64,000 bases of DNA from Escherichia coli (lineage in GTDB: Bacteria > Pseudomonadota > Gammaproteobacteria > Enterobacterales > Enterobacteriaceae), in assembly GCF_045037415.1 (NCBI RefSeq), contig NZ_CP173438.1; one strand, 5' to 3'. Under the pieces are notes generated by a model. The model was not told the DNA's origin and did no database searches. It saw only the letters and a list, made by a program, of their open reading frames with translations. Below, one piece after another: positions 8,105-40,403 of this stretch. Every line of letters starts with the position of its first letter. The stretch's first letter is position 1. Made by a program: the position numbers and the translations under genes.

Positions 8105-8110
8105 CTCAAT

Positions 8111-8857: not shown

Positions 8858-9468
8858 AGGTATTTTTGTACCGGCATGCGCTGGTAGAGGCACGTCATTT
8901 TTTGGGACTCTACCGCAATCGCGTTGGGGATAAATCGGGCATGAAGGACTGCTTCAAAGCGAACATATTCGCAGCCCATTTATTCAGAGGTATCAGCAGT
9001 TTTAGCGATGTGTTTTTCTTTATTAAGCTGCTGGGCAAGCTATTCTGATAAGTTGTGCGTTGCTACACGACACCAGCGCACAGCTTAATTTCACGCTTTC
9101 TGACTAAATTGTTCAGGCCTTTTCTATAGGTGCAAACACAACTCCCCGTACTTTCCTCTTCCAACTCAAAATCATCGCACCTTGCTGACCCAAGAAGGGA
9201 GCATACCCTGCACTAGTATCCGCACAGCTAATACTCTATTGATACCAACAACGCTTCAGCACAACAAAGTAACTCGATAATCACAACTCAAAGTGAAGAT
9301 GCCAAAAACTCGTTTGAGAGCAATAAATTCAATAACATGAAAAAAATGTATTTTGCATTGAAAATCTTACTTATTGCGCTTGGCTACAATTGCATGCTTG
9401 GTAATATAGATTATAAAACACCAGACTAGCTGCCTGGTAAGTAATGTAATAGCAGAGGAAATATCACG

Positions 9469-11544
9469 ATGGATCTTGTAGATAGTGTCGAAGCAGGTAA
9501 GCTGACGATCAGTGAATTGATTGATGCCCTGGCGAAAGATAAAAATTACTCAGCTTCCAAGTGGGATCAGCGATACCGTGAATTTACGACCTTGCTACAA
9601 CAAACCTCAACTTTTTCTGAACCTGAAACGGATGGTTTAGTCAAGAGGCTCTGGTATGAACGCGATAACGGTATTGCCAGTATTCGCCAGGGCGTTCCAT
9701 CCTTAGCAGAATATCAGCAAAGCCTGCCACTGCTTAGAGAACTAACTGAACGAATTCGGCAACAGCCGGATGAAGAAACTTACCAATATGTTGGCAATGC
9801 ACTACAACAAGCTAAAGAAAACGGACTTCTCAAGCGTATGTATAGGAGTTTGAGAAATCGCGTCTTTGCCGCGTTCTCGCCAGAAAACTACACCAGTACT
9901 GTGGATGAGAATGCTTTTAGTAAAGCAGCAGAATTCCTAAATCAGCACTTCCATCTCGGTCTGGCACTGACCGGAAATTGGTTACAGAAAAACTATGAAT
10001 TGAAACAAGCCATACACGCCCAATCTCCTGACACAGATCCTTATTACGTGAATATGGCCATCTGGCATCTCTATGAATTGCTCCGTGAACGCGATAATGA
10101 ACAAAAGCAGGAGAAAATAGCGAGCACTACATTCATAACCAGCAATGAGCCCATCGAGAACAAGATCATCCTACATTCACCAACTAACGTGATCTTCTTT
10201 GGCCCCCCTGGCACTGGCAAAACCTTCAGGTTGCAGCAAAAAATGAAAGAGTACACTTCTCATGCTGTTCCAGCTGATCGTGATGCCTGGCTGGATTCTC
10301 GCCTTGAATCGTTGAATTGGATGCAGGTTATAACGCTGGTGCTGCTCGATCTTGGGAAACGAGCCAAAGTTCGCCAAATTATTGAACATATGTGGTTTCA
10401 ACGTAAGGCATTATTAAACGGTCGTAATGGCAACCTATCGAATACAGCCTGGGCAGCTTTGCAATCCTATACAGTTCCCGAGTCGTTAACCGTTGATTAT
10501 AAGAATCGGCGTGAGCCTGCCGTATTTAACAAAACAGATAACAGCGAATGGTTGCTAGTTGATTCACAGCTCGAGCAAGTGGAGGATTTGGTAGAGCTCT
10601 ACGCCGAACTTAAACGAGGCCCTAAATCTGCCGAAGCCATCCAGCGTTTTGCGGTGGTTACGTTCCACCAATCTTACGGCTATGAAGAATTTATTGAAGG
10701 TATACGCGCTCGCTCTGACGAGAGTGGCAATATCTCTTATCCCATTGAGCCGGGTATCTTTATGCGCCTTTCCCAACGTGCCAATGCCGATCCAGGACAT
10801 CGCTACGCCATTTTCATTGATGAGATCAATCGCGGTAACATATCCAAGATCTTTGGTGAACTAATCTCACTCATTGAAGTAGACAAGCGTGCAGGCATGC
10901 CCAATGCAATGAGCCTACAACTGGCTTATAGCGGTGATCACTTCAGCGTACCCGCCAATGTCGATATCATCGGAGCCATGAATACAGCGGACCGTTCTTT
11001 AGCTCTGATGGACACGGCTTTGCGCCGTCGCTTTGACTTTGTCGAAATGATGCCCGATCTCTCTTTACTGAGTGGAGCTAAGGTGAAAGGCATAGAGCTC
11101 GAGTCGTTGTTAGAGAAACTCAATAGCCGCATCGAGGCTCTTTACGATCGTGAACATACGCTGGGGCATGCGTTCTTTATGCCGGTAAAAAATGCACTCG
11201 ATGCCGGTGATGAAGAAGCTGCGTTTAAACAATTGAAGATCGCATTCCAGAAAAAGATCATTCCGCTTTTACAGGAATACTTTTTCGATGACTGGAACAA
11301 GATCCGGTTGGTGCTGGCAGACAATCAAAAGCAAGACGACAACCTGCAATTCGTGATTGAGAAAACCGACGATCTCGATACGCTTTTTGGTAACAACCAT
11401 GGTTTACGACACCATGATCAGCAATCAACAGCTTACGAACTCAAAGATTTCGATCAAGAGATCTGGAATATTCCACAGGCTTATCGTTCAATTTATCAGC
11501 CCCAGCAGACTCCCCTTGATGAGCAGGCTGTAAATCATGGGTGA
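9469..11544 (+). CDS. McrB-family AAA+ GTPase (type IV restriction subunit) with non-canonical ~230-aa N-terminal domain
   Basis: Walker A FFGPPGTGKTF; McrB signature FHQSYGYEEFIEG; Walker B FIDEINRGNISKIFGE; MNTADRSLA...ALRRRF. Confidence 0.85.
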   Translation: MDLVDSVEAGKLTISELIDALAKDKNYSASKWDQRYREFTTLLQQTSTFSEPETDGLVKRLWYERDNGIASIRQGVPSLAEYQQSLPLLRELTERIRQQPDEETYQYVGNALQQAKENGLLKRMYRSLRNRVFAAFSPENYTSTVDENAFSKAAEFLNQHFHLGLALTGNWLQKNYELKQAIHAQSPDTDPYYVNMAIWHLYELLRERDNEQKQEKIASTTFITSNEPIENKIILHSPTNVIFFGPPGTGKTFRLQQKMKEYTSHAVPADRDAWLDSRLESLNWMQVITLVLLDLGKRAKVRQIIEHMWFQRKALLNGRNGNLSNTAWAALQSYTVPESLTVDYKNRREPAVFNKTDNSEWLLVDSQLEQVEDLVELYAELKRGPKSAEAIQRFAVVTFHQSYGYEEFIEGIRARSDESGNISYPIEPGIFMRLSQRANADPGHRYAIFIDEINRGNISKIFGELISLIEVDKRAGMPNAMSLQLAYSGDHFSVPANVDIIGAMNTADRSLALMDTALRRRFDFVEMMPDLSLLSGAKVKGIELESLLEKLNSRIEALYDREHTLGHAFFMPVKNALDAGDEEAAFKQLKIAFQKKIIPLLQEYFFDDWNKIRLVLADNQKQDDNLQFVIEKTDDLDTLFGNNHGLRHHDQQSTAYELKDFDQEIWNIPQAYRSIYQPQQTPLDEQAVNHG

Positions 11545-12823
11545 AGTTATCTCCGTTTTTGAATATGACCTATTGGGGAGTGACAAAGCGGCTTCAGTTG
11601 GCGCAAAACTGGTGCCTCCACTGGTCTTTAATTATTTAGAAGCGCTTAGCTTGGCAAGTAATCAAGGGAGCCAGTTCCTCAAACTCACCTCTCGCTCAGG
11701 CTTCAAATTGCTTCAGGTTCAAAACTACGCGGGGATGCTTTCAACACCTCACGGTTTCCAGCTTGAGATACTGCCCAAGGTTGGTAAAAACCTCACAGCG
11801 GCTAATGCACGTCAAACATTACTGACGATGCTAAGCCATTTGCCTGGGTTTCGACATATTGAAACTCAGCAAGCCACTCTTCAGGCTCAGCGTATGCCTT
11901 TGCTTGAGATTTTTATTCACCAGTTTTTGCATAGCGTTAGCCAATTACTTAAACAAGGTTTACGCTCCGACTATGTGAGCGAGCAAGGTAATCTGGCTTT
12001 TATGAAGGGCAAGCTGATGCTTTCTGCACAGCTGCGACATAACGCGGTGAATCGCCATAAGTTTTGTGTCGATTATGATGACTACATGCCTGATTGTGCA
12101 GCCAATCGGCTCTTACACTCCGCGCTAGATAAGCTTCTTAGTCTAAAGCTGTCATCAGAGAATCAACGCTGGCTTTACGAACTGCGCTTTGCGTTTGACG
12201 GTATTCCACTTAGCCGGGATATTGAACGTGATATAAACAACTTACGCCTCGAGCGTGGTATGGCTCATTACAACGAGCCAATGGCGTGGGCGCAATTGAT
12301 CCTGAGAGGAATGAGTCCGAGTGCTTTGCAGGGAAACACCAAAGCGATATCACTTTTGTTCCCTATGGAAGCGGTATTTGAATCCTTTGTGGCACAGACC
12401 CTACCCTACGAATTACCTTCTCATCTCAAAGTAATACCACAAGCGGCTACTTATTCTCTTGTGAAGCACGGGTCTAACGATTGCTTTAAACTTCGGCCGG
12501 ATTTGTTGATTCAGTCACGTCGACCGGTACAAACCAAATTGGTGATGGACACAAAATGGAAGCTAATAAATAGCAACTCCCAAAAAACAACACAGTATGG
12601 GCTAGCGCAAGCCGACTTCTATCAAATGTTTGCCTACGGTCAAAAATACCTAAATGGGATTGGCGAAATGTACTTAATCTATCCTGCGCATGATCAATTT
12701 AACCAACCGATACAGCAGCATTTTGCTTTCTCTAAAACATTAAAACTATGGGTTGTTCCGTACCAGATAACAGCAAACCGCGGGGAGAGGATGATGTGGG
12801 TGAAGGATGTGTCCAGTATATAA
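11537..12823 (+). CDS. McrC-family nuclease subunit
   Basis: 428-aa ORF overlapping the McrB-like stop by 8 bp (translational coupling); C-terminal PD-(D/E)xK-like LRPDLL...VMDTKWK. Confidence 0.75.
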   Translation: MGEVISVFEYDLLGSDKAASVGAKLVPPLVFNYLEALSLASNQGSQFLKLTSRSGFKLLQVQNYAGMLSTPHGFQLEILPKVGKNLTAANARQTLLTMLSHLPGFRHIETQQATLQAQRMPLLEIFIHQFLHSVSQLLKQGLRSDYVSEQGNLAFMKGKLMLSAQLRHNAVNRHKFCVDYDDYMPDCAANRLLHSALDKLLSLKLSSENQRWLYELRFAFDGIPLSRDIERDINNLRLERGMAHYNEPMAWAQLILRGMSPSALQGNTKAISLLFPMEAVFESFVAQTLPYELPSHLKVIPQAATYSLVKHGSNDCFKLRPDLLIQSRRPVQTKLVMDTKWKLINSNSQKTTQYGLAQADFYQMFAYGQKYLNGIGEMYLIYPAHDQFNQPIQQHFAFSKTLKLWVVPYQITANRGERMMWVKDVSSI

Positions 12824-13547
12824 ATTTCTAGCCAAGCTGGCGATGAACCAGTCCTCTAAAAAATGGGTATAATCATAGTTTATTTACTAATTAAATTAAT
12901 ATAAAGTAATTACTTTATTATATGGAGAATTTATGAAAATGGGAAAAATTGCAGTTACTCCTAATAATGATAAAGCAGCCAGCCACTCTAAAGATGAAAA
13001 TTTAGCCACAAATACAATTAAGAAAAACGTAAAACCTAAATATGGCGATGCGGCATTTTTAGAGTACACTCGACTAATAGTTAACCACCCGAATTATTTT
13101 GGAATGCCAGATCCCTTTGGGGAAAAAGGTGAGATTCAATGGGAAGCTCCATCAAATAGGGCATCGGGGAAATTTAAACACACTCATCAACGGCGCTATG
13201 AATGGTGGAAAAATAAAGCCAGAAGTATTGGGATAGACCCTGACACTGAAAAAGCATGGATTAGTAAAACAGCTAAACTAATTCATCCACTTGGAGTTAA
13301 ACCATGCAAGAAATGCGGTAAAGAAATGGAATTATCTTACTCCTACCCAAATGAGCATTTCTTTTCTCGGGTTAGGAAACTTAATTATATAGATGAGACT
13401 TTTGAGCTATCTCAAAATGAACACATAGTTGATTTGTTGACTCGTTTAGATGATAGATTTGGTGAAAGAATATATTTAGATTTACCACATTTATTTTCTA
13501 CAAAATCCATCACGATTTGAAGTGGTCAACAAAAACTGGCCACCGAG

Positions 13548-14695
<1,148 letters not shown>

Positions 14696-15928
14696 TATGG
14701 CACCTGTGTTGTTCTGAGGTGAGCATATCACCTCTGTTCAGGTGGCCAAATTCAGTAAACCACTTCAATTCCAGATATTTCAAGCAATCTCGAAGCATGG
14801 ATTGAGTATCTAAAAGAACAATACATACCTCAAGAATCACGTATGCTTAGCCCTGGAGCCATGGCAAATCCTCCAGATCGTTTTGATGGATTTCATTCAT
14901 TTAACCGCTGTTGTCGCTCTATTGCTGATAAAGGAAGGACCAAAGAAAATCTTAAATCTTATGTTACTGACAGAAGAGTTTTCGAATATTGGGTGGATGG
15001 TGATTGGGTAGCTGCAGACAGGCTAATGGGCCAAGTTAGAACAAATAATATATTTATTAACGAGGAATGTTTGAATGCCGGAAATGGTGGTTTACATCCA
15101 ACTCCTTGCCAAGCAGATCACATTGGCCCAATCTCACTAGGGTTTTCCCATCGCCCACAATTTCAACTACTTTGCAAATCATGTAATAGTGCCAAAAACA
15201 ATCGTATGTATTTAAGTGATATAATCTCTTTATTAGAAGCTGAGAATGAAGGTCATACGGTTATTTCATGGTTCGCAGAAGAAGTATGGAATCGACTAAA
15301 ACACTCTGTAGATGATAGTGAAAAAGCCTTAAGACTAAGTAAAATACTACGTGATAATAGACATACATATATGAATCTTCTTAAAAAAATAATGGATGAA
15401 GGTTATTATACTTTCCTTGCAAGTCTTTTACATCTTGAGGTAGCCAATTATAACCCAATATTTGAGGGATTATGCATTTCAAATCATTTAACTCATTATA
15501 AATCATTAAAAAAAATAAAACGTGAATCAAAATATGCTGCTGTGCAAAAAACAAGACGAATCAGAATAGCATTTACTTCATTGAATGATTATCATAGAAA
15601 AGAAAATCGGAACGCATTTATTGTATCAAATGAATTATCTGAGAAGTTTTTCTCTGAAGCTATGGATAATTTAAAATCATTAAGTGAAATTACATCTTGC
15701 TTAGATGAAAAAATATCCGGAATAATATCTGAGAATTCAGATTCAAAAAATGAATTTCGAACAATCATTACAGATCTACGAGAAATAGTGACAAACAATA
15801 AAGAAAAATTCAACTTGATATTAAAATATCTAATATCAGGGATGAGCGAAATAGGAAAAGAACTGGAATCATATTGGGAAAATGATCGTTATGTTCGCTC
15901 AATCCCAGAAGAATTTATAGAGTAAGAC

Positions 15929-15952
15929 ATAGCCCTCTTATAAAGAGGGTTT
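15929..15952. terminator. Possible bidirectional terminator hairpin between convergent REase and MTase genes
   Basis: CCCTCTTtataAAGAGGG hairpin followed by TTTTAT; overlaps the C5-MTase stop. Confidence 0.3.
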
Positions 15953-17128
15953 TATATTCCTTTCATAATATTCTGAAGGAGTAATATTACCTCTCATGAA
16001 TAATTGATAGTCATTTTCGGGGTGATGGATATAATATTTACCACTTCCATCTTCACCATGTTGCAAAGGAGGCAGATCAGATAATGCATCCTTTACAGAT
16101 ACCCAAGATTCCTTATCTTCTGTTAATTTTTGTGGAGGTTCAATTGAAAATAAAGGGTCGTTTGAACCAACCAATATAACCCTTTTTCGGCGCTGAGGGA
16201 TTGCATAATGTTCAGAGTTTAATATCCATCCATTCATAGTTTTCATGGTTGATGAGAATTCTTCTTTGACTCTTTCAAAGACCTTACCTTTTTCCATATT
16301 CAACAAACCAGCAACATTTTCAAAAATAAAACCGTTTGGTTTTATCTCATTTAAGAGAGATTTATAATGCATAAAAAGTGAATTTCTTGGATCATCCATT
16401 GTTCTGGCATTTCCTGCCGTAGAAAATCCCTGGCATGGGGGTCCACCAAGTATCCATAATTGTTTATCAAAATATAATTTCTTAAATCCTGATATTTTAT
16501 CTGCTATTTTTGAAAAAGTTTCATTATCAGAAATGCTGCCACATAAAACTTCTTTGTGAACATTGTTTGAATATGTTTGTAGATATTTTTCTTCAATATC
16601 ATTCGCCAATAATGGAGTCCATCCAGCCCATTTGAATCCTAGTCCCAGCCCTCCAGCTCCGGAAAATAAATCGATATAATAACCAGTATTACCTATCGCC
16701 TTCTCTATTTCTTTCGCAATCAGAAAAGCTAAAAATGGGGGCACTGCATTACCGATTTGGGTATTAATTGCTGTTTGACCTCCGAAGAAAATAAAATCAT
16801 CCGGGAACGATTGTAGTCTTGCAGCTTCTCTCTGGGATAGAACACGATCTTGCTCATAGTGAATATGGCAACCATTCCCAGGTCGGTTAAAATATGTATT
16901 GATAGTATATGCAGGCATATCTGGAAGTAATCTACCGTAGTATGTTGAACGGCTTCCTTTTCCTTGTGCATAACTATCCCTAATTTGCTCTATTCTTTTA
17001 GACGGTACATCTAAAGGAATATTTTTCCAGTTGCCACCTGGCGGTACTGAGTTAACAATCATCATATCCAATTCACTTAGCTTTGCTGCCTTGTGATTGG
17101 GAATCATAAATGTTTCACTTTTAGTCAT
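15938..17128 (-). CDS. DNA (cytosine-5)-methyltransferase, circularly permuted motif order
   Basis: Motifs IX/X (RLQSFPDDFIF, QIGNAVPP) precede motif I (DLFSGAGGLGLGF), IV (GGPPCQGFSTAGN), VI (FIFENVAGLL), VIII (QRRKRVILVG). Confidence 0.85.
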   Translation of the reverse strand: MTKSETFMIPNHKAAKLSELDMMIVNSVPPGGNWKNIPLDVPSKRIEQIRDSYAQGKGSRSTYYGRLLPDMPAYTINTYFNRPGNGCHIHYEQDRVLSQREAARLQSFPDDFIFFGGQTAINTQIGNAVPPFLAFLIAKEIEKAIGNTGYYIDLFSGAGGLGLGFKWAGWTPLLANDIEEKYLQTYSNNVHKEVLCGSISDNETFSKIADKISGFKKLYFDKQLWILGGPPCQGFSTAGNARTMDDPRNSLFMHYKSLLNEIKPNGFIFENVAGLLNMEKGKVFERVKEEFSSTMKTMNGWILNSEHYAIPQRRKRVILVGSNDPLFSIEPPQKLTEDKESWVSVKDALSDLPPLQHGEDGSGKYYIHHPENDYQLFMRGNITPSEYYERNIKPSL

Positions 17129-18761
17129 AATGTTGAAAAATCCTCAATAAACTTTCTTTTTCAGCTAACTCAATCTTATCAAATGAAGACAGAAGCTTAT
17201 TAAATTCATTCAAATCCAATTTGTAAATATTTTTGGCAACATAAGCCTCAATTTTCAACTCAGCATCACAACATCCCTCTATGCAAGAAATCACAAGTTG
17301 TTTTAATTCAGAATGTTGTAATAATATTTTTTCAGACGGTATTGCAGTTTTTCGTAAGGCTGACAATGATACATGACCAGTAGCTAAAAAGCTTCTTAAT
17401 TGAAATTCAAAACAAAGGGAGTTTATAATACCAAGCAAACTAAAGAGCGAATCTTGCGAACCACTTTTATAATAGACCACCCCTAATGAATTCCCTGCCA
17501 AAGAGTTAGGAGGTATTATCGTTGCAATCATTCGCCTTTTTTGACTCGGGCGTGAAATGTCACGCCATGCAATCCTTACGAAATTAGAATTGGATAGAAC
17601 CTTATCAATTTTTTTCGTTATTCTTAAGCTCTTCTCATTATGAAAATTATACCTCCCAATCATTTTTCCTTTAATGAATAATAATCCGCCGCCACTTTTT
17701 TGTGTCCAGTCACTACTACCAGTTTCATCTATTTCTCTTCCTGCCCATATCTCTCCATTTTTTTCCAGACTACCCCATGTTGGGTATCCCTCTTGCAGCT
17801 TTCTTAACAAATGAACGGCATGAACACCTTGAGATACCGGAATGCTAAGATATTGAGAATCTATACTAGACAAATCAAAAAAACCTAGTGATTTAATATT
17901 TAAGTTTTTATCATACACACTAAGTTGAATATTATCATTAAGGGATTCACCTTTATTAAAAATAAAAGAACATGAAGAAACATCAGCACCGCCGAATAAT
18001 TTAGCCTCAGCTGGATAATAATTTATGCAATCAATCCTCCCTGAATTAAAAAACTTTTCACGTAATATGTACGATTGTTCATCTGCGAAAAAAGATGCAG
18101 GCATAACTATAGCTACCAATCCATTTTTATTACATATTTCTAAGCTAAGTTCTGCACCAACACGTGAAAGATTAGTCCCCCACCCAGCAAATTTACGCTT
18201 CGGCTGAGAATATGGCAATACTCTTGACAAATAATCATCAAACTCACGAAGAGAGTCTATATACATCGATTTCATAGATGGTTCAAAAAAATCGAGCTCT
18301 CTAGAATCTGGTTTTATATTCTCCCAAGGCGGATTGGTTATAACACAATCAAAATAATCAACATATTTTTTAAATTCATAAAAAACATCACTATTTTTTA
18401 TAGTAATGTTAATATTTGCACCTGCTAACTTAAGTTCAGACAACGCATTTTTAGCATAAGTGAGGCCTGTATTTTCTATATCGAACAGATAAACATTCCA
18501 CTCTACATCTGGAAAACCATTTATCATCCATTGTTTAATAAGCAATGTAATAAGTCGACCATCCCCTGAAAATGGATCTGCGACATTATAACTTTTTTTA
18601 TCACAGGAATTTATCAATGGTAATAACTTCTCTATCATCAAAAGAGCTATTTTTGGATCTGTATAGTATTTACCTGTCGCTTTTTTAGTGAATTTTGTTG
18701 TCTCGTCCAAGGACAGTGAATTAATTAAATGGATATGTTTCATGTAAAATATCTCTTCCAT
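17121..18761 (-). CDS. N6-adenine DNA methyltransferase
   Basis: Motif I VADPFSGDGRLI and motif IV VITNPPWE; stop overlaps the start of the downstream C5-MTase by 8 bp (operon). Confidence 0.8.
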   Translation of the reverse strand: MEEIFYMKHIHLINSLSLDETTKFTKKATGKYYTDPKIALLMIEKLLPLINSCDKKSYNVADPFSGDGRLITLLIKQWMINGFPDVEWNVYLFDIENTGLTYAKNALSELKLAGANINITIKNSDVFYEFKKYVDYFDCVITNPPWENIKPDSRELDFFEPSMKSMYIDSLREFDDYLSRVLPYSQPKRKFAGWGTNLSRVGAELSLEICNKNGLVAIVMPASFFADEQSYILREKFFNSGRIDCINYYPAEAKLFGGADVSSCSFIFNKGESLNDNIQLSVYDKNLNIKSLGFFDLSSIDSQYLSIPVSQGVHAVHLLRKLQEGYPTWGSLEKNGEIWAGREIDETGSSDWTQKSGGGLLFIKGKMIGRYNFHNEKSLRITKKIDKVLSNSNFVRIAWRDISRPSQKRRMIATIIPPNSLAGNSLGVVYYKSGSQDSLFSLLGIINSLCFEFQLRSFLATGHVSLSALRKTAIPSEKILLQHSELKQLVISCIEGCCDAELKIEAYVAKNIYKLDLNEFNKLLSSFDKIELAEKESLLRIFQHYD

Positions 18762-31561: not shown

Positions 31562-32479
31562 TTATCTGGAATGTCGGTACCTTTTATACTCTTCAACAAT
31601 CAGGTCATGCAGCATTTCGCCGGTACTGAGTCTTCTGACCCTCGATAATTCTTTGAGCTGCGCCCTGGTTTCTGCGTCAAGAAAAAACTGTACATTGACT
31701 TTATCTTCCTGCATTTTTTTGTACTTGCGCTGCGCCTTGGCCTTATTGAAACTGTTTCTGAAATTTTTTATATCGTCAGGTGAGGTGAGTGGACAGGTAA
31801 CCCATATGTCAAATGAAAGGTGGATTGCGTGGTAAATATCAGCAGAACCAGGAAAACTGGCCAGTTTTTCCAGTGCAATATTTTTTCCCTTCAAATAATT
31901 CCATGTCCATATGCATTCATGTTCGTTCTCCGGGAGGAGGTAACTGAAAGGACTCTTTGATTTAAATGCCCGTATCCATCTGTCTTTGGTCTGGATTATC
32001 CACTCATCCCGCAAATTCTTATCAGAAAGAATATCGAGAACTCTGAGTATTTGTCTGAACTGTGTCGATGAGTCCGACGGGAAGGCATTCCCTTCCAGAT
32101 ACTCTTCTTTAAGATACAGTTTATTCTTTTGAAGCAAGTCTGCGCTTATTTTTGCCCTGTTATTCTGGATAAACTGCATCAACAGATACCAGGAAAATAA
32201 GCATGCGCGTTCACTGCCCGCGATCCAGGATATTTTTTCCAGGGGGACCAGGAAGGCCAGGGCCTTCAGACGCATACCAGAAATTATTTGTTCAAGTTCA
32301 AAATCTGAAAGTGTGATGTTCAGATTTTCTCTGTTTTTTTTTATGTAAGCGATAAAACGTTCCGGGGGATCATAAACATTAAGGGGCAGTACGGAGATAT
32401 TACGCTCTCCAAGATAATAAGAGTAATACGCATTTGTTCTTTCATTCATAACCTTATCCGACAAAATTTTCTGAACCAT
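31562..32479 (-). CDS. Hypothetical protein (305 aa) with C-terminal ribbon-helix-helix-like segment; AT-rich
   Basis: Long uninterrupted ORF; C-terminus VNVQFFLDAETRAQLKELSRVRRLSTGEMLHDLIVEEY; no recognised family. Confidence 0.6.
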   Translation of the reverse strand: MVQKILSDKVMNERTNAYYSYYLGERNISVLPLNVYDPPERFIAYIKKNRENLNITLSDFELEQIISGMRLKALAFLVPLEKISWIAGSERACLFSWYLLMQFIQNNRAKISADLLQKNKLYLKEEYLEGNAFPSDSSTQFRQILRVLDILSDKNLRDEWIIQTKDRWIRAFKSKSPFSYLLPENEHECIWTWNYLKGKNIALEKLASFPGSADIYHAIHLSFDIWVTCPLTSPDDIKNFRNSFNKAKAQRKYKKMQEDKVNVQFFLDAETRAQLKELSRVRRLSTGEMLHDLIVEEYKRYRHSR

Positions 32480-33679
32480 CCTCTTTCTCCGGTTGCTTAA
32501 AAATTAAACATAATAAGGTGATAATAACATGATAAAAAGAAGTTTATAATAGTATATTAAGGTGGTCAATAAAAAGGCAATCTGCGCGCTGTACAGTCAT
32601 TCTGACAGGAAATGCAGGAGGAAGGGAAGGTAACCGGCTTCGTTATGCTGACAGGAATACCTGTTATCATGGAAGTGCACTCATGTGGCCGACGTAGCTT
32701 AAGAGGATGGAAGAGTGGAGACTGCAGACAGGGGGTATTGAAAGGTAAACATGTTTCGCCCGCCAGCTGCACCGGGGGCCAGCATCACTTTTTTTACGTT
32801 GTAACCCGGTATGCATTCCGGCTTTGATGATTACAGTCAGAGGGCAGCAGACTGACGTTATTTAACCGGACAGAAAAATTATGGACACTGAAATATCGTC
32901 TGTTAATACCTCGTTTGTCGGTGTGGTATTCCCTGTATTACCGGCGTCACCGATAAAGAGAGTTATAAACGCCAGAAAGGTACCTCCTTTATGCCGGGGA
33001 ACACTTACGGAAAATGAAGTCTGAAAAGGAGCACAATGAAAAGAGGCGTGTCCCGTAAATATAACGAATCATCGCAGGATATGCATTATCAGGTGATACC
33101 AGAGGGCATTAAACTGTCGCCACGGATAAGAATATACAACATTTCTGATAACAAAACATCATAACGTGTTTCAGATATGTTCCGGCATCAGTCTGACGGA
33201 TATTATTTCCCGGGAAAACAAACCTGCTACTGTGACGGTTAACTGTATCTGCATAAATTATTTATGATGAAAGAACAGTATTACGGATTCAAATATCATC
33301 CTGTTTGCATTCAGGCGGACATTCCCGGATGCCGGAAAGAATATCCTGCAGGCTGAGTGAGTCTCTTCCACAGTGCCGGGATCGCTGTCGCCACGTACAT
33401 ATTGTCACCAGGATGGGTATGTACCGCAGCATGCCATTTCTGGTGAATAACCGCACCTGCACATTCAGTCTGCTGAGAACCTGGCGTGCATCGGGCTGTA
33501 AAGAACATCCCTGTCCGTGGCTCCTCTGGTGGTGTTGCCTGCTCAGCAATGACAGGATGCCCTTAAGACGCCCGTCATGGCTCAGTATGATGACGACGAA
33601 CACGCTCTGCAGGTGAGCATGCGGGGCCGGGAGCATCATCATTTCCGTATTTTGTCACACCTTCCGGAAGCAACCGGCA

Positions 33680-34297
33680 TCAGTTGCGGTTATCGTCAAC
33701 CGTTGTGCGGTATGCCAGGAGCACGTACTGATCCATCAGATCCGTCAGTGCTGCGCTCTGCCTCTGACGGTTGATGATCCATTCCTCCAGCTCTTTTTCT
33801 GATTTCCGTTTCAGGTTCTCTTTCCAGTCTTCAAGGCTGTTTCCGGTCATTAAATCAAGCCAGCAAAGCCAGACCAGTTTGAGGCGCAACTCCGTGCCAC
33901 CAAACTGACGGAAGAGGCTAATCAGTTTATTTGCCAGAGAACGCTGCCTCAGACGTTCACATTCAGACAGGAGAATGCCTTCCAGCATCGGATGATGAAC
34001 CAGCAGATGTTCACTGGTGCATAAATTCACTATCAGATCATCATCCAGGGGCGGCGTGGCCCGTTTGTCAGGGCCATAAATCAGCCGGTGCAGGCTCTGG
34101 GGTACGATGGCAATCTCCGGTTTTTCACCATTGAATGACACCCACCCGGGCGTCAGATTATGGAAGTAGTAGATATTCGGATGACACACGCCCCAGGATA
34201 CGGCGTGCCGGGTGAAGCCGGTCAGCCATTTCTGGTAGCTTTCGTGGAGCAGTTCGTAACGGGTCTGATACTGTTGTTTCATTTTCATATTCCTCAC
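33680..34297 (-). CDS. Hypothetical protein (205 aa) downstream of alpA
   Basis: ORF only; no recognised motifs. Confidence 0.45.
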   Translation of the reverse strand: MRNMKMKQQYQTRYELLHESYQKWLTGFTRHAVSWGVCHPNIYYFHNLTPGWVSFNGEKPEIAIVPQSLHRLIYGPDKRATPPLDDDLIVNLCTSEHLLVHHPMLEGILLSECERLRQRSLANKLISLFRQFGGTELRLKLVWLCWLDLMTGNSLEDWKENLKRKSEKELEEWIINRQRQSAALTDLMDQYVLLAYRTTVDDNRN

Positions 34298-34377
34298 GGG
34301 GGATATAACAGGCAGCAGAATGCCGCCGGCAGGCCGGGGATTACGTCTGCTGCGGGTGAACGGATAACGGTCAGAAA

Positions 34378-34584
34378 TTACGGGCGGGGCTGTGCAATAC
34401 GCGCCTGTAGCCAGGCTTCCACTTCACTTTTCAGCCAGCGGGAGCTGCGGCCCAGCTTGATGGGAGCCGGAAAGGCCCCATCCCTGATGAGCCTGTAAAA
34501 CCACTTATCTGTCAGGCCGTTCAGTTGAGTGATAAATGCCATGTCGACCATCTGGTCATCCATCAGTGAAACTGGGGTGGTCAT
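34378..34584 (-). CDS. alpA: AlpA-family prophage transcriptional regulator
   Basis: ATG at 34584; ...FITQLNGLTDKWFYRLIRDGAFPAPIKLGRSSRWLKSEVEAWLQARI typical of AlpA. Confidence 0.8.
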   Translation of the reverse strand: MTTPVSLMDDQMVDMAFITQLNGLTDKWFYRLIRDGAFPAPIKLGRSSRWLKSEVEAWLQARIAQPRP

Positions 34585-35309
34585 GAGAATGTTCCTCCGG
34601 ATGTTGTTAATCTCAACCGGCGTTGGTGATGAAAACAACGCACCACCTTCACCGGCATAACAACCGGGGAGAAACGTAAAAAATAATCGGGAATGTGACC
34701 GTCAGGAGATAAACGGGGGGATTGCGGTGGCTGAGCCGTACCGGTATGTCGGGTGGTTGTTGCGAAACGATGCTTCCGCACGCGCACGCGATAAAGGAGG
34801 GAGGACTTTCGTGAGACAAGGGGAAAACTAGCGTTCTGATAATTGCAGAGTTGTTTTTGAAGGCGGTTGTGGTATATCAGCCTGTGACCTGTGGGCAGGC
34901 GACAGTTATCACTGGTGGGATAAGACTGTCTGATTGGTATTATAAATATATAAGAGAGATCAAACACATGAGATCAAATACATGAGTTCATATATGTGAA
35001 ATAAACACTGTGAGTGCGATCAGTGGGCATGAGAACGCAGTAGCAGCAGATTGCGTTGTACCCACAGGGCTATCTCTGATAGCTGGCGTATAACCTGCGT
35101 ATATAAAACGTACCTGCAACACACGTGAACAGAGTGCATTAAGCATCCGTCTGAGCGGTAAACGTATCCGACCTGGTGAGTGACAGTCTGAGAGACCGGT
35201 TAAGTGGTGGCACGGGAGTAATGAGTTTGGGGAGGGTACCAGAATGCCAGGCTGGTGCGGTATGCTGACAGCATCCTGTTAACCGCAGCATAAAGTAATG
35301 AGAGGCTAA

Positions 35310-35507
35310 TGGAAGTTAAAACCACAGCAGTTCCGTCGTTGTTCATCCCGGGAGACGCTGGAAAAAGTGATTTCCCACACGCGTTATAAACTTACCCCTG
35401 CGGAGCTGGAAGCCTTTAACTCTGCCGTTGACAACCGGCTGGCAGAACTGACAATGAACAAACTTTACGATCGCGTGCCGGCTTCCGTCTGGAAATATGT
35501 CACCTGA
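35310..35507 (+). pseudogene. Hha/YmoA-family regulator homolog lacking an in-frame start (likely N-terminal frameshift)
   Basis: Frame gives ...RRCSSRETLEKVISHTRYKLTPAELEAFNSAVDNRLAELTMNKLYDRVPASVWKYVT*; an ATG at 35309 is in the +1 frame. Confidence 0.4.
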
Positions 35508-35839
35508 ATCTTGAATCCGCGCTACGATGACTCCGGTGTTATCTGTGCACCGGAAGATCGGGAACATTAAGCAGTATAACGGCAACAAAGAATTCGAAAT
35601 CAAAAGGGAATGGTGTACAGAGGGGCAGGCGTTCAGGCATTACCGGCCTGTATCTTCTGAAGGGGACTCGTATTTGTCGGGGCTGAGTATTCCGCTCGAT
35701 TCGATCACGGATTGGCGGAATACCTGACTGTGATTGATTCAGATACCATTTTGCAGGGAGCCGGTGCGTTACTGTCTGGCACAACAAACGCAGCGGGTCG
35801 CTCTGCCCCGCCGATTCCTGATAATCCCTCCCCTGTAAC

Positions 35840-36034
35840 CTACTGCAACAGTACAAATACACTGACGCCTGAAACGGTAACCAGAATCAGCACCAGCAGT
35901 AACGTCAGTAAACAGAGCAGACGATCGGTCTTCCGGTAATAACCGAAGGGGTCGACAGCGCCACAATACGGGCAACAAACTGTATTATGAGTAATTGCGT
36001 TACCACAGTCCCTGCACTTCTTTTTGCGTATCAC
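35840..36034 (-). CDS. Small zinc-ribbon membrane protein (hypothetical)
   Basis: 64 aa; CRDCG...CCPYCG followed by a hydrophobic helix. Confidence 0.35.
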   Translation of the reverse strand: MIRKKKCRDCGNAITHNTVCCPYCGAVDPFGYYRKTDRLLCLLTLLLVLILVTVSGVSVFVLLQ

Positions 36035-36236
36035 GATAGCTCCCTCGCCACGCCTTATCCGTAACCGGTTTTTTACATTAAAAAAAACAACGCCGGGAAT
36101 TCAATCGTCAGTCCGGAGACGACCGTTCGGGTTATCACAGAGTGCCTGAGACAGTGTCCTGCCGGAGGTCACTTCAGGGACTCTGCGTATTTTTTACGAC
36201 GTGGCTATTCCGTATGAACCATACGGAGATTTAACC

Positions 36237-36806
36237 ATGACCTACAAATACAACCCCTTCTGGCAGCAACGTATTCGTGAGACGGTGCGGCACGCACTGA
36301 ATGTTCATCCCCGCCTGACGGCATTGCGGGTTGACCTGCGTTTCCCGGATGTACCGGCAGCAACGGACGCAGCTGTGATATCCCGCTTCATCAATGCCCT
36401 GAAAGCCCGAATCGACGCTTACCAGAAACGTAAGCATCGGGAAGGTAAACGCGTGCATCCCACAACCCTGCATTACGTCTGGGCCCGGGAGTTTGGGGAG
36501 TGCAAAGGTAAAAAACACTATCACCTGATGCTGCTGGTTAACCGGGATACCTGGTGTCGTGCCGGTGATTACCGTGCTCCGGGATCACTGGCCGGGATGA
36601 TTAAACAGGCGTGGTGCAGTGCCCTGGGAGTGGATGTCGGGTGCCATGCCACGCTGGTGCATTTTCCGGCCTGGCCGGCGGTGTGGCTGGAACGCGATGA
36701 TGACACTGGCTTTCAGCAGGTGCTGGAACGTGCTGACTATCTGGCGAAGGAACATACCAAAGCTCACTGCACCGGTGAGCGCAATTTTGGCTGTAGCCGG
36801 AGTTGA
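36237..36806 (+). CDS. Inovirus Gp2-like / YagK-YfjJ family protein (HUH rolling-circle Rep-like)
   Basis: ATG at 36237 (MTYKYNPFWQQRIRE...); HUH-like motif KKHYHLMLLVN; family recalled from CP4-6/CP4-57. Confidence 0.7.
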   Translation: MTYKYNPFWQQRIRETVRHALNVHPRLTALRVDLRFPDVPAATDAAVISRFINALKARIDAYQKRKHREGKRVHPTTLHYVWAREFGECKGKKHYHLMLLVNRDTWCRAGDYRAPGSLAGMIKQAWCSALGVDVGCHATLVHFPAWPAVWLERDDDTGFQQVLERADYLAKEHTKAHCTGERNFGCSRS

Positions 36807-37059
36807 GCACGACTGGCGCGCCAATACCCGGCAAACCAAAAGTATGGGTTGTTGTCTGGCGGCAACGATGTATCCACTCGCCCACTGACTGTTTTTTACG
36901 TCAGTGTTCCATTGTGTGACAACCACAGTGCTGTAACAGCAACCAGCCTGCTTTACCCAAACTCCAGTCCAGATTTTAACTGAACCGCCATTCACACCCT
37001 GACCACGCTGCCCGTACCGGGACGGCTGTTGCCTGCGTGTCGTCTGGCGGCTGAGGAAT

Positions 37060-37467
37060 ATGACTATGTACGCAAAATCCTTTATCGCTCTTGATGGCAA
37101 CGGACGTCTGACGGGCGCCCGTACTGCACAGGCCGCACCTTATGCTCACTACACCTGCCACTTGTGTGGCAGTGCACTCAGATACCATCCGCAATACGAC
37201 ACTGAACTTCCCTGGTTTGAACACACTGACGACAGGCTGACAGAGCACGGTCAACAGTGCCCTTATGTCAGGCCGGAGCGCAGAGAAATACAGTTGATTA
37301 AACGTCTGCAGCAATTCGTACCGGATGCCTTACCCGTGGTGCGTAAAGCCAGCTGGCACTGCAGACAATGTCACCACGATTATTATGGGGAGCAGTACTG
37401 CACACACTGCCAGACCGGAGGATTCAGTATTCCCCGGACAACTCAGGAGGAAATATGCGAATTCTGA
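37060..37467 (+). CDS. Zinc-ribbon protein resembling the N-terminal domain of CoiA-like competence proteins (paralog 1)
   Basis: YTCHLCGSALRY...PWFEH...WHCRQCHHDYYGEQYCTHCQTGG; paralogous to the next ORF. Confidence 0.5.
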   Translation: MTMYAKSFIALDGNGRLTGARTAQAAPYAHYTCHLCGSALRYHPQYDTELPWFEHTDDRLTEHGQQCPYVRPERREIQLIKRLQQFVPDALPVVRKASWHCRQCHHDYYGEQYCTHCQTGGFSIPRTTQEEICEF

Positions 37468-37889
37468 ACTGTTATATGGCGAATGACAGCAAAGGCCATT
37501 TTGTTACGGCGAAAGAAGCTGCGAAGCACAACCGACAGGACGTTTTGTGCTGTGTGTCCTGTGGATGCCCGTTAACACTTCAGCGGGGCAATGACGGACA
37601 ACCACCGTGGTTTGAACATGACCAGATGACTGTCGCTGAAAAAATCCTGCTGCGATGTACCTGGCTTGACCCGGCAGAGAAAGAGGCCCGTCGTTTGCAT
37701 CTGCAGGGCATGACGGTTCCGGATTATACGGTGAAGGTGAGAAAGTGGTTTTGTGTGATGTGTGACGAAGATTATGAGGGGGAAAAGTGCTGCCCACGCT
37801 GCGGTACCGGGGTATACAGCAGGGCGTGGGGGCGGCAGGAGGTGCCGTCGGAAGATGCCAGGGCTGATAATCCGTTACAGAGGCTGTAA
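37455..37889 (+). CDS. Zinc-ribbon protein resembling the N-terminal domain of CoiA-like competence proteins (paralog 2)
   Basis: LCCVSCGCPLTL...PWFEH...WFCVMCDEDYEGEKCCPRCGTGV; start overlaps paralog 1 by 13 bp. Confidence 0.5.
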   Translation: MRILNCYMANDSKGHFVTAKEAAKHNRQDVLCCVSCGCPLTLQRGNDGQPPWFEHDQMTVAEKILLRCTWLDPAEKEARRLHLQGMTVPDYTVKVRKWFCVMCDEDYEGEKCCPRCGTGVYSRAWGRQEVPSEDARADNPLQRL

Positions 37890-38045
37890 TGGTTGCCTCC
37901 GGAGCAGTTTGCGGTGATGCCTTTCCCGGGAATGGATTGCCAGTGCGGGGACTGTGGAGCTTAATTCCGGTGTTGGTGGCCTTTCCATTGATTTTATGCC
38001 AACAGCCCCCTGTGACTGACAGGCTGCCTCGTCATTCCATTCGTA

Positions 38046-38151
38046 TCTCCAGTAACAGGGGGTTGTATTGTATTTTATTGTACCGGTTCAGGTGTGCGTT
38101 TCCCGGCGCGTCTGCACCGGCTTAACCAAATTCAACAGGGATAAAATAGTG
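38046..38151. repeat. About 110-bp repeat, copy 1 (second copy at 58765-58875), abutting the IS66 left end
   Basis: tctccagtaacagggggttgtattg...caacagggataaaatagtg is near-identical at both loci (copy 2 has an extra 5 bp); flanks differ. Confidence 0.7.
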
Positions 38152-38222
38152 GTAAGCGTACAGCCTGAACCGTCTGGTCAGAATCTGACGAATTAGACAA
38201 AGTGGTGTCCACCAAATAAGTA

Positions 38223-38624
38223 GTGGGAACCAAAGTGTCAGATATGCAGAAAAATGTGACTCCCGGCAGGCGAAAAGGCTGCCCTAATTATCCTCCCGAA
38301 TTTAAACAGCTGCTCGTTGCTGCCTCCTGTGAACCCGGGATATCCATCTCAAAACTTGCTCTTGAAAATGGCATTAACGCCAATCTGTTGTTCAAATGGC
38401 GACAACAATGGCGCGAGGGAAAGCTGCTATTACCTTCTTCAGAGAGCCCCCAGCTACTTCCTGTGACTCTCGATGCAGCTGCCGAACAGCCAGAATCGCT
38501 CGCAGAGGACCCGGAAACCCTCAGTATCAGCTGTGAGGTAACGTTCCGGCACGGGACGCTCCGCTTCAATGGCAATGTCAGCGAAAAGCTCCTGACTCTG
38601 CTGATACAGGAACTGAAGCGATGA
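38223..38624 (+). CDS. IS66 accessory protein TnpA (orf1)
   Basis: 133 aa with HTH (ISISKLALENGINANLLFKWRQQ). Confidence 0.8.
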   Translation: MGTKVSDMQKNVTPGRRKGCPNYPPEFKQLLVAASCEPGISISKLALENGINANLLFKWRQQWREGKLLLPSSESPQLLPVTLDAAAEQPESLAEDPETLSISCEVTFRHGTLRFNGNVSEKLLTLLIQELKR

Positions 38625-38968
38625 TCCCGTTACCTTCCGGGACCAAAATTTGGCTGGTTGCCGGTATCACCGATATGAGAAATGGCTTCAACGGCCTGGC
38701 TGCGAAAGTACAAACGGCGCTGAAAGACGATCCCATGTCCGGCCATGTTTTCATTTTCCGGGGCCGCAGCGGCAGTCAGGTTAAACTGCTGTGGTCCACC
38801 GGTAACGGACTGTGCCTCCTGACCAAACGGCTGGAGCGTGGGCGCTTCGCCTGGCCGTCAGCCCGTGATGGCAAAGTGTTCCTTACGCAGGCGCAGCTGG
38901 CGATGCTGCTGGAAGGTATCGACTGGCGACAGCCCAAGCGGCTGCTGACCTCCCTGACCATGCTGTAA
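38621..38968 (+). CDS. IS66 TnpB (orf2)
   Basis: 115 aa, MIPLPSGTKIWLVAGITDMRNGFNGLAAKVQ... typical IS66 orf2. Confidence 0.85.
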   Translation: MIPLPSGTKIWLVAGITDMRNGFNGLAAKVQTALKDDPMSGHVFIFRGRSGSQVKLLWSTGNGLCLLTKRLERGRFAWPSARDGKVFLTQAQLAMLLEGIDWRQPKRLLTSLTML

Positions 38969-39017
38969 ATCTCTTTATCCTGGTTGTCACAGAATAAGCC
39001 CGGTAAAATACGGGCTT

Positions 39018-40403
39018 ATGAACGACATCTCTTCTGACGACATCTTCCTGCTAAAACAGCGCCTGGCCGAACAGGAAGCGCTGATCCACGCCCTGCAGGA
39101 AAAGCTGAGCAACCGGGAGCGCGAAATAGACCATCTGCAGGCGCAGCTGGATAAACTCCGCCGGATGAACTTCGGCAGTCGTTCCGAAAAAGTCTCCCGC
39201 CGTATCGCACAAATGGAAGCCGATCTGAACCGGCTTCAGAAAGAGAGCGATACGCTGACTGGTAGGGTGTATGACCCGGCAGTACAGCGTCCGTTGCGTC
39301 AGACCCGCACCCGTAAGCCGTTCCCTGAATCACTACCCCGTGACGAAAAGCGACTGTTGCCTGCGGCGCCGTGCTGCCCGAACTGCGGCGGTTCACTGAG
39401 CTATCTGGGCGAGGATACCGCCGAACAGCTGGAGTTGATGCGTAGCGCCTTCCGGGTTATCCGGACGGTACGGGAAAAACATGCCTGTACTCAGTGCGAT
39501 GCCATCGTGCAGGCACCTGCACCTTCGCGGCCCATCGAGCGGGGTATCGCCGGACCGGGGCTGCTGGCCCGCGTGCTGACCTCGAAGTATGCAGAGCACA
39601 CCCCGCTGTATTGCCAGTCAGAAATATACGGCCGGCAAGGTGTGGAGCTGAGCCGTTCACTGCTGTCGGGCTGGGTGGATGCATGCTGCCGGCTGCTGTC
39701 TCCGCTGGAAGAGGCGCTTCATGGCTATGTCATGACTGACGGCAAACTCCATGCCGATGATACCCCGGTCCAGGTACTGCTGCCGGGTAATAAGAAGACG
39801 AAGACCGGGCGGTTGTGGGCGTATGTTCGTGATGACCGCAATGCCGGGTCAGCGTTGGCACCTGCAGTGTGGTTCGCTTACAGCCCGGACAGAAAAGGCA
39901 TCCATCCGCAGACTCATCTTGCTTGCTTCAGCGGTGTGCTGCAAGCGGATGCGTACGCCGGGTTCAACGAGCTGTATCGCAATGGTGGGATAACGGAAGC
40001 TGCCTGCTGGGCTCATGCCCGCCGAAAGATCCACGATGTGCACGTCCGCATCCCGTCAGCACTGACGGAAGAAGCCCTAGAGCAGATCGGTCAGTTGTAC
40101 GCCATAGAGGCGGATATAAGGGGAATGCCGGCAGAGCAGCGGCTTGCTGAACGTCAGCGAAAAACGAAACCGCTGTTGAAATCCCTGGAAAGCTGGTTGC
40201 GTGAAAAGATGAAGACCCTGTTCTTCGGCTCTGGCCATGGTGGTGAGCGGGGAGCGCTACTGTACAGCCTGATCGGGACGTGCAAACTGAATGACGTGGA
40301 TCCAGAAAGCTACCTTCGCCATGTGCCTGGCGTCATAGCAGACTGGCCGGTCAACCGGGTCAGCGAACTGCTTCCGTGGCGCATAGCACTGCCAGCTGAA
40401 TAA
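39018..40403 (+). CDS. IS66-family transposase TnpC (orf3), possibly shortened
   Basis: 461 aa with leucine-zipper N-terminus, CxxC zinc motif and DDE core; shorter than the recalled ~520 aa. Confidence 0.8.
   Translation: MNDISSDDIFLLKQRLAEQEALIHALQEKLSNREREIDHLQAQLDKLRRMNFGSRSEKVSRRIAQMEADLNRLQKESDTLTGRVYDPAVQRPLRQTRTRKPFPESLPRDEKRLLPAAPCCPNCGGSLSYLGEDTAEQLELMRSAFRVIRTVREKHACTQCDAIVQAPAPSRPIERGIAGPGLLARVLTSKYAEHTPLYCQSEIYGRQGVELSRSLLSGWVDACCRLLSPLEEALHGYVMTDGKLHADDTPVQVLLPGNKKTKTGRLWAYVRDDRNAGSALAPAVWFAYSPDRKGIHPQTHLACFSGVLQADAYAGFNELYRNGGITEAACWAHARRKIHDVHVRIPSALTEEALEQIGQLYAIEADIRGMPAEQRLAERQRKTKPLLKSLESWLREKMKTLFFGSGHGGERGALLYSLIGTCKLNDVDPESYLRHVPGVIADWPVNRVSELLPWRIALPAE

Follow-up and report, generated by a model that had tools for sequence, protein, structure and literature searches.

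Paired zinc-site proteins beside a YagK/YfjJ-family HUH endonuclease-like gene in CP4-57-like islands of Enterobacterales

CP4-57, CP4-44 and islands resembling pathogenicity islands carry virulence, iron-uptake and anti-phage cargo. In tmRNA-integrated islands of Pseudomonas, the pairing of AlpA with a Gp2-like protein has been proposed as a likely core function (PMC12595487). The stretch of DNA analysed here (the window) comprises 64,000 nucleotides (nt) of the Escherichia coli contig NZ_CP173438.1 (assembly GCF_045037415.1), and it shares with CP4-57 and with the Pseudomonas islands I23, I44 and I55 an adjacent alpA/Gp2-like pair, RadC and defence cargo (PMC12595487). Unlike those islands, however, it also encodes two small proteins with two zinc sites each, ZnR-a and ZnR-b (also ZnR1 and ZnR2), behind a Gp2-like gene of the YagK/YfjJ family; CP4-57 of E. 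coli K-12 lacks both genes, and the word "zinc" does not occur in PMC12595487. Only some enterobacterial islands have this added pair, whose members are functional, anciently diverged paralogues of a family restricted to Enterobacterales, which tentatively may act as zinc-finger adaptors or regulators of the AlpA-YagK core module of CP4-57-like islands. The three central genes are the following:

36237-36806, plus strand: YagK/YfjJ-family gene for a HUH (Rep-order) endonuclease-like protein of 189 residues (YagK_YfjJ_C, E 1.3e-47), with an alternative GTG start at 36201
37066-37467, plus strand: ZnR-a, a-type, 133 residues with two zinc sites (DUF7828, E 2.5e-31; Zn_ribbon_11, E 8.6e-9)
37455-37889, plus strand: ZnR-b, b-type, 144 residues with two zinc sites (DUF7828, E 9.3e-31; Zn_ribbon_11, E 1.7e-18)

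All three open reading frames (ORFs) lie on the plus strand at the coordinates given in an initial annotation made from the letters alone, and the 13-bp overlap of the ZnR genes that it described is real (37455-37467, ATGcgaattcTGA, read in different frames). The lengths given there for the ZnR proteins, 135 and 145 residues, need correction. The longest ORF of ZnR-a does begin at 37060 (135 residues), but its likeliest start is 37066 (133 residues, MYAKSF...), because a GAGGA Shine-Dalgarno sequence lies 8 nt away, RefSeq calls the same start, and orthologues begin with MYAKSF or MYAQSF; ZnR-b has 144 residues, and its ATG is preceded by a strong AGGAGG Shine-Dalgarno sequence 5 nt upstream. 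The proposed paralogy holds in pairwise and in profile alignment: BLASTP aligns the pair at 31% identity over 125 residues (E 2e-15), far beyond what chance would give, and both proteins match the same two Pfam models and contain the motif string C-x2-C...PWFEH...W-x-C-x2-C...DY-x-GE-x2-C-x2-C-x-TG. DUF7828 (PF25165) spans model positions 1-87 of 87 in ZnR-a and is matched by all 43 aligned homologues, and Zn_ribbon_11 (PF11682, formerly DUF3279) is a C4 ribbon; each model is matched end to end by both proteins.

In the alignment of these 43 sequences, the columns C33, C36, F53, E54, H55, C68, W98, C100, C103, Y107, G109, C113 and C116 (numbered as in ZnR-b) are invariant or nearly so. They include the residues of two predicted metal sites per protein, one CCHC (C33, C36, H55, C68) and one C4 (C100, C103, C113, C116), which correspond in ZnR-a, numbered over 135 residues, to C33, C36, H55, C67 and to C101, C104, C114, C117. 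Zinc binding is thus predicted from conserved ligands. Structural prediction with AlphaFold2 gave a confident model of ZnR-b (mean predicted local distance difference test score, pLDDT, 88), consisting of a small beta-rich N-terminal module, a helix and the C-terminal ribbon. About 25 helical residues separate the two zinc modules, and the chains stop just past the second zinc site, in keeping with the earlier remark that they have no nuclease domain. Both genes are under purifying selection, with ratios of nonsynonymous to synonymous substitution (dN/dS) of 0.15-0.20 for ZnR-a and 0.08-0.16 for ZnR-b.

The N-terminal module had been compared with that of CoiA, a competence protein with a PD-(D/E)XK domain that has been described as a DNA-processing nuclease (bioRxiv 10.1101/2024.02.06.579203). 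The likeness lies in a zinc module of the form C-x2-C ... aromatic-x-H ... C, and it stands for the first zinc site as a remote resemblance that stays below threshold: ZnR-b matches CoiA_N (PF25164) with an E-value of 0.39 over the first zinc site only, and ZnR-a has no CoiA_N match in Pfam at E <= 10. Among the 43 family members, nine reach E <= 0.1, the best being 1.3e-3. The resemblance is made credible by an intermediate, the metagenomic protein P0234 (273 residues, loci L006-L008), in which the same residues match both CoiA_N (E 3.9e-7) and DUF7828 (E 1e-5). P0234 consists of the finger, an unassigned middle domain of ~170 residues and a C-terminal Zn_ribbon_11, on contigs too short for genomic context, and its architecture may represent a larger ancestor of the ZnR proteins. 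Membership in CoiA itself was rejected, since neither ZnR protein has a Pfam match to a PD-(D/E)XK nuclease and only the remote finger link remains. Unlike CoiA, the ZnR proteins also lack the CoiA C-terminal region and carry the extra C4 ribbon instead, and the family is island-borne and confined to Enterobacterales rather than a competence gene. By its domain matches, the proper family is DUF7828 plus Zn_ribbon_11. The ZnR proteins are thus already catalogued, as Pfam domains of unknown function and under RefSeq names, but uncharacterised.

While the presence of two paralogues agrees with the tandem duplication first suggested, the duplication is not a local event. An all-against-all comparison of proteins from E. 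coli, from an island on Klebsiella IncFIB/HI1B plasmids and from metagenomic pairs gave a clean split into an a-type, whose members all begin with MYAKSF (ZnR-a of the window and its best reciprocal relatives Kp_a, L015_a and L017_a), and a b-type (ZnR-b of the window, Kp_b, L015_b, L017_b). The a gene invariably precedes the b gene, in Escherichia and Klebsiella as well as in other Enterobacterales. Of 64 loci whose downstream sequence is long enough, 51 have ZnR-b after ZnR-a, the exceptions being mostly truncations or fusions, and 27 of the 28 a-b pairs with called starts within 60 nt overlap by 1-13 nt. Judged from these sequence relationships, the duplication is older than the divergence of the island lineages, and both copies have been kept. 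An old, ordered pair with both members maintained is the pattern expected of two cooperating subunits. Rare single ORFs of 225-290 residues join the a and b genes (P0047, P0241, P0017 and L132 287-1159, in clusters of 1-11 members) and are probably products of indels in the 13-bp overlap or of sequencing errors.

The family is of limited range. A search of 1.84 billion proteins returned 123 representatives at 50% identity, many of them fragments, and a profile search gave 485 clusters at 90% identity. Every source that bears a name belongs to Enterobacterales, namely Escherichia, Salmonella, Citrobacter, Enterobacter, Klebsiella, Yersinia, Serratia, Edwardsiella and Lelliottia. A tblastn search of 50,697 phage genomes found no member, and neither ZnR protein has a PHROG. 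Among 72,556 plasmid records, 32 contain the family, several of these being mislabelled chromosomes. On the Klebsiella plasmid pRWS291.s3 (L020), positions 7343-10741 encode DUF932, DUF905, WYL, Gp2, AlpA, ZnR-a, ZnR-b, a second Gp2-type protein and DUF2913; since this island backbone occurs on large IncFIB/HI1B plasmids, such islands, or their cores, also reside on plasmids.

Within the HUH superfamily, Rep proteins carry the HUH motif before the catalytic tyrosine, while in conjugative relaxases the tyrosine lies N-terminal to HUH. The product of the upstream gene, which the initial annotation had rightly called Gp2/HUH Rep-like, follows the Rep order, with HUH at 94-96 preceding Tyr168, and departs from the relaxase order. 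Besides YagK_YfjJ_C it matches REP_ORF2-G2P weakly (Pfam, E 6.2e-5), and it is 36% identical to YfjJ of K-12. Its motifs comprise motif 1 LRVDL (D33), the HUH motif 2 H94-Y-H96, the glutamate E85 and Y168-x-x-K171, and the residues R31, D33, E85, H94, H96, W126, Y168, K171 and R182 are invariant across 32 homologues whose identity to the window protein is only 16-22%. These homologues include Providencia forms of 346-358 residues and Klebsiella and Enterobacter forms of 195 residues, not always recognised by Pfam. The motif evidence for the HUH assignment is strong, and YagK is predicted to be a Rep-class HUH endonuclease with an intact catalytic signature. Its AlphaFold2 model is confident (pLDDT 84, predicted template modelling score 0.83); the best Foldseek matches in the PDB are the nuclease domains of minute virus of mice NS1, bocavirus NS1, adeno-associated virus (AAV) Rep and Vientovirus Rep, together with the related AEP primases, and are weak (E >= 3.7e-3, TM <= 0.45). 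The gene has a dN/dS of 0.10-0.24, and among the PHROGs it matches only phrog_25019, of unknown function. In motif 1, HUH, Glu, Y-x-x-K and their order, YagK resembles the Rep-class HUH proteins, such as inovirus gpII (G2P), the Rep of circular Rep-encoding single-stranded (CRESS) DNA viruses and parvovirus NS1/AAV Rep. It differs from them in being a nuclease-only protein of 189 residues encoded in a chromosomal island, with no helicase domain and no internal DNA-binding or zinc domain, the zinc-finger proteins being separate.

The tie between the ZnR pair and the Rep-like gene, which had been left as unexplained, proves to be a conserved neighbourhood. The loci were collected with ZnR proteins or a non-coding pattern as the query and without recourse to YagK, and a YagK-like ORF lies on the same strand, at most 1.5 kb upstream, of 56 of the 58 a-type genes. 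Three YagK subtypes, only ~20% identical to one another, occur together with ZnR genes. In E. coli the arrangement is YagK-a-b, with alpA and a gene for a 200-residue protein divergent; in Klebsiella it is YagK-AlpA-a-b-YagK2-DUF2913; in other Enterobacterales it is YagK-like-AlpA-a-b followed by defence cargo; and at a Providencia-type locus ars genes come after YagK-AlpA-ZnR. The arrangement thus varies, and adjacency and gene set are kept. A natural fusion, the metagenomic protein P0218, joins a ZnR protein to a following YagK-like domain (hhalign probability 96.9%, E 2e-10), and its gene lies directly after intact YagK and alpA genes. Two further genes of the window belong to this neighbourhood:

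34378-34584, minus strand: AlpA-family helix-turn-helix gene of the excisionase/activator type (RefSeq "helix-turn-helix transcriptional regulator"; PHROG excisionase/regulator families, E 8e-10), part of the same conserved module
33680-34282, minus strand: protein of ~200 residues without family assignment, encoded downstream of alpA, with a homologue directly before each ZnR gene in locus L010

AlpA genes adjoin ZnR genes at other loci too. In L010, the order is AlpA-hyp-ZnR-YagK-hyp-ZnR-AlpA, where "hyp" is homologous to the window protein of 33680-34282 (30% identity to L010:5458-5988, BLASTP E 1e-19). This protein has no match in NCBIfam, PHROGs or PADLOC and is probably, going by its conserved position, a fourth member of the module.

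YagK-like genes are also accompanied by a short motif, TTTTTTAC, found here at three places around the gene:

36069-36076, plus strand: TTTTTTAC copy 167 nt upstream of the YagK start
36190-36197, plus strand: TTTTTTAC copy 46 nt upstream of the YagK start
36883-36906, plus strand: DNA hairpin CACTGAC(T)GT-TTTTT-ACGTCAGTG, which holds a TTTTTTAC copy at 36892-36899, 87 nt past the YagK stop

Counted from YagK, these copies of the octamer stand at -167, -46 and +87 of the gene strand, and the window has eight copies against 2.3 expected. A T6 run occurs in 26 of 48 distinct 130-nt stretches downstream of YagK-like genes and is followed by AC in 26 of 26 cases, while the reverse complement occurs 0 times in those 48 stretches. 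The link between the motif and YagK genes recurs in at least eight sequence contexts unrelated to one another, among them K-12 yfjJ (L141, +6), the Klebsiella island (L020 7961-, +49), L010, L012 and L005. The copy at +87 sits in the loop of a stable DNA hairpin (-6.5 kcal/mol, z -3.6, with 0 of 200 shuffles as stable), but sites elsewhere fold weakly and the hairpin context is not general. A mere terminator U-tract was rejected, since AC follows all 26 T6 runs and the run of the window lies inside a hairpin loop. Its T-run/AC junction resembles the nick sites of the CRESS Reps (TAATATT/AC, the slash marking the nick) and of Ff gpII, and TTTTTTAC in the window hairpin loop recalls the T-rich ...TT/AC loop sites of the CRESS Reps. 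It is accordingly a candidate recognition or nick site of the HUH protein.

A second non-coding element precedes the ZnR genes:

36978-37065, plus strand: conserved non-coding leader of ~90 nt directly before ZnR-a (identity of 80-93% between E. coli and the island on the Klebsiella plasmid)

The leader consists of AACCGCCATTCAC, a hairpin GCTGCCC-loop-GGGACGGC with a bulged A, GCCTGCGTGTCGTCTGGCGG and the Shine-Dalgarno sequence, in this order, and its conservation starts abruptly at AACTGAACCGCC whatever the sequence upstream. It is the most conserved stretch of the locus; adjacent coding DNA is 45-80% identical, with 1.6-2.8 synonymous substitutions per site (dS), so that synonymous sites are saturated. 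Scanning metagenomes with a degenerate pattern gave 132 matches, 72 of them with a ZnR gene immediately downstream, and these 72 loci include 38 distinct versions of the leader core, in which the hairpin core is partly imposed by the search pattern and the hairpin loops vary. There is one copy per locus, and 26 of the 72,556 plasmid records contain it, those listed also carrying ZnR genes. The association with a-type ZnR genes supports regulation of ZnR rather than an origin; an origin for YagK or a plasmid-derived origin of transfer was rejected, as the leader is missing wherever the a-type gene is missing and the listed plasmid copies occur in records with ZnR genes.

Several other identities were considered for the leader and set aside. 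A structured RNA finds no support, since Rfam covariance models gave no match at E <= 1 in 32000-38400 and the minimum free energy is no better than that of shuffles (z -0.09); RNAalifold recovered the central hairpin only, with almost no covariation. A coding upstream ORF was rejected, because the frame is broken by loops that differ in length by 2, 4 and 5 nt. By eye, GGGACGG-N4-TTGC could be read as sigma-54-like, but this was dropped as the -12 element is not conserved in divergent versions. Neither a clear dyad or direct-repeat operator nor a sigma-70-like promoter was seen in the leader. The simplest reading is that it serves as a cis-regulatory leader or operator of the ZnR operon.

The ZnR pair is tentatively read here as an adaptor or specificity factor for YagK. 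This reading draws on the HUH signature of YagK, which is intact and of Rep type, on the candidate nick site and the neighbouring alpA gene, on the age and coupled translation of the a/b pair, and on the fusion and the CoiA-type finger. The module would consist of AlpA, a YagK/YfjJ-type HUH endonuclease, the ~200-residue protein and the ZnR pair, carried in CP4-57/P4-like islands. AlpA-driven activation or excision would come first, and the ZnR pair would then act as a non-catalytic zinc-finger adaptor for the HUH protein. ZnR-a and ZnR-b would be made together from one translationally coupled operon, their expression tightly set through the leader before ZnR-a, and would most likely form a hetero-oligomer. 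By binding nucleic acid, the HUH protein or both, the pair could direct or limit the nicking of single-stranded DNA, at sites such as the TTTTTTAC copies flanking the HUH gene, and hence rolling-circle-type initiation of replication. With a HUH signature, a candidate site and ZnR partners in many enterobacterial islands, a block of "hypothetical" genes becomes a testable module.

A number of observations weigh against this adaptor function. The leader travels with the a-type ZnR gene and not with YagK, being absent where there is no a-type gene, K-12 yfjJ included. K-12 CP4-57 has alpA-yfjI-yfjJ followed by cargo and no ZnR gene, and YagK/YfjJ proteins therefore need no ZnR partner. The fusion is known from one contig, and one His and the Tyr are missing from its YagK-like half. 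Linkage on a shared mobile element could give co-occurrence without physical interaction. The isoelectric points (pI) of the ZnR proteins, 6.2-9.2, are near neutral, which is unusual for small sequence-specific DNA binders and a caution against presuming classical DNA binding. Finally, no mention of DUF7828, Zn_ribbon_11 or DUF3279 was found in the searched literature, where a description of the a/b orthology, the neighbourhood, the fusion, the leader or the TTTTTTAC motif was likewise not found.

The main rival to the adaptor reading, and somewhat less likely than it, is that the pair regulates transcription or translation. Like the late-gene activators P2 Ogr and P4 Delta, the two would be zinc-finger activators or repressors, here acting on island or cargo genes and autoregulated through the leader, and the link to YagK would reflect only a shared early operon. 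Like Ogr and Delta, the ZnR proteins are small Cys4 zinc proteins of P4-related mobile elements, and Delta, which comes from a related element class, itself consists of an Ogr-like zinc finger duplicated in tandem. The most conserved DNA of the locus being the ~90-nt leader with its Shine-Dalgarno sequence, found only with a-type genes, fits this proposal, as do the position of the pair directly after alpA, a regulator gene, in one operon in several lineages, its place at the border of backbone and variable cargo or defence genes, and the existence of YagK genes without ZnR. However, neither protein matches the Ogr_Delta model of Pfam even at E <= 10, and, unlike Ogr and Delta, the ZnR pair has two different zinc modules on each of two polypeptides and no evident late-promoter context. 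The leader, moreover, shows no clear dyad or direct-repeat operator and no sigma-70-like promoter, the near-neutral pI counts here too, and this proposal does not explain why a ZnR protein is naturally fused to a YagK-like domain or why ZnR and YagK genes are interleaved.

A bolder extension of the adaptor reading, and quite an improbable one, would combine YagK, the ZnR pair, the TTTTTTAC sites and the leader into an unrecognised system for initiating rolling-circle replication or transfer, in which a separate heterodimeric factor with two zinc modules recognises the origin and guides a HUH Rep that has only the nuclease. If true, this would give the common tRNA- and tmRNA-associated pathogenicity and defence islands of E. 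coli and its relatives a means of replication and mobility after excision. A HUH initiator with accessory DNA-binding or zinc modules is a familiar theme, and the finding represents no new principle.

It could also be speculated, with a still lower chance of being right, that the pair is cargo, placed at the cargo hotspot of the island and unrelated to the function of YagK, namely a counter-defence or defence factor such as a nuclease-less decoy of CoiA-like or other DNA-processing enzymes. The architecture does resemble a CoiA-type protein stripped of its nuclease, the islands hold anti-restriction, RadC and toxin-antitoxin genes, and the genes past ZnR-b differ between islands (IS66 and fec here; gentisate genes, a DNA methylase with a SNF2 helicase, KwaA and type I restriction-modification elsewhere). 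Yet the position and order of the pair are constant across genera and YagK subtypes, one member is fused with a YagK-like domain, and the pair has no match in PADLOC or in the 50,697 phage genomes. A known defence system was rejected, as PADLOC returned zero families for YagK, ZnR-a and ZnR-b, and so was a phage origin, given the absence of the family from the phage collection and of any ZnR PHROG.

There is a negligible chance that disruption of a single larger gene gave rise to the two ORFs, a concern already raised by the initial annotation, or that they are pseudogenes decaying in a cryptic island: one indel can fuse the overlapping frames, rare fused ORFs of 225-290 residues occur and the island is rich in insertion sequence (IS) elements and pseudogenes, but each ORF is complete, with the full two-domain architecture and all eight zinc ligands, dN/dS is 0.08-0.20, the two-gene layout recurs in Klebsiella and metagenomic lineages with saturated synonymous sites, and the fused forms are singletons or very small clusters.

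The window derives from an E. coli chromosome of B2 type. Over positions 36000-38000 the sequence matches Nissle 1917 and many clinical isolates with 100% identity, and over 20000-44000 it is 100% identical to strain THO-003; RefSeq gene calls were taken from the matching records of these two strains. By that annotation, the locus sits within a CP4-57/CP4-44-like integrative island. The region is found in 3810 of 5426 complete E. coli genomes (~70%) and the ZnR family in ~3810-3822 of them, with a median of two copies. The left part of the island carries, on the minus strand, cbtA/cbeA, DUF987, a RadC-like JAB protein, an anti-restriction gene, DUF932 and Ag43/Cah, followed further along the same strand by a YeeP-type GTPase, two hypothetical genes and the AlpA-type helix-turn-helix gene, after which come an hha-like remnant and a zinc-ribbon/membrane ORF of 65 residues. 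On the plus strand, Nissle 1917 and THO-003 have the same RefSeq names for the three central genes: "inovirus Gp2 family protein", "putative zinc ribbon protein" and "zinc-ribbon domain-containing protein". Beyond ZnR-b, an IS66 element is followed by a phytase-like gene and then by the fec operon. Anti-restriction, RadC and toxin-antitoxin genes are present in the island, along with many IS elements and pseudogenes.

Several smaller features were observed along the way. The zinc-ribbon/membrane ORF (35840-36037, minus strand, 64-65 residues, divergent from YagK) encodes a C-x2-C...C-x2-C zinc ribbon followed by a hydrophobic helix; it is annotated as "hypothetical", is kept in islands L003 and L004, and has weak matches to PHROGs of unknown function. 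The short Hha/YmoA-family gene at 35358-35507 on the plus strand is intact in Nissle 1917 (49 residues) and annotated as an N-terminally truncated pseudogene in THO-003. The IS66-family element spans ~38152-40403 on the plus strand, with tnpA at 38244-38624, tnpB at 38621-38968 and tnpC at 39018-40403, and is inserted ~262 nt past ZnR-b; those 262 nt are common to other islands without the IS. Finally, ~10700-18750 encodes a McrBC-like pair and an Alw26I/Eco31I/Esp3I-type restriction enzyme with two methyltransferases, according to the annotation of the identical THO-003 region, and a G+C content of only 31-36% at 15-19 kb marks a separately acquired defence block.

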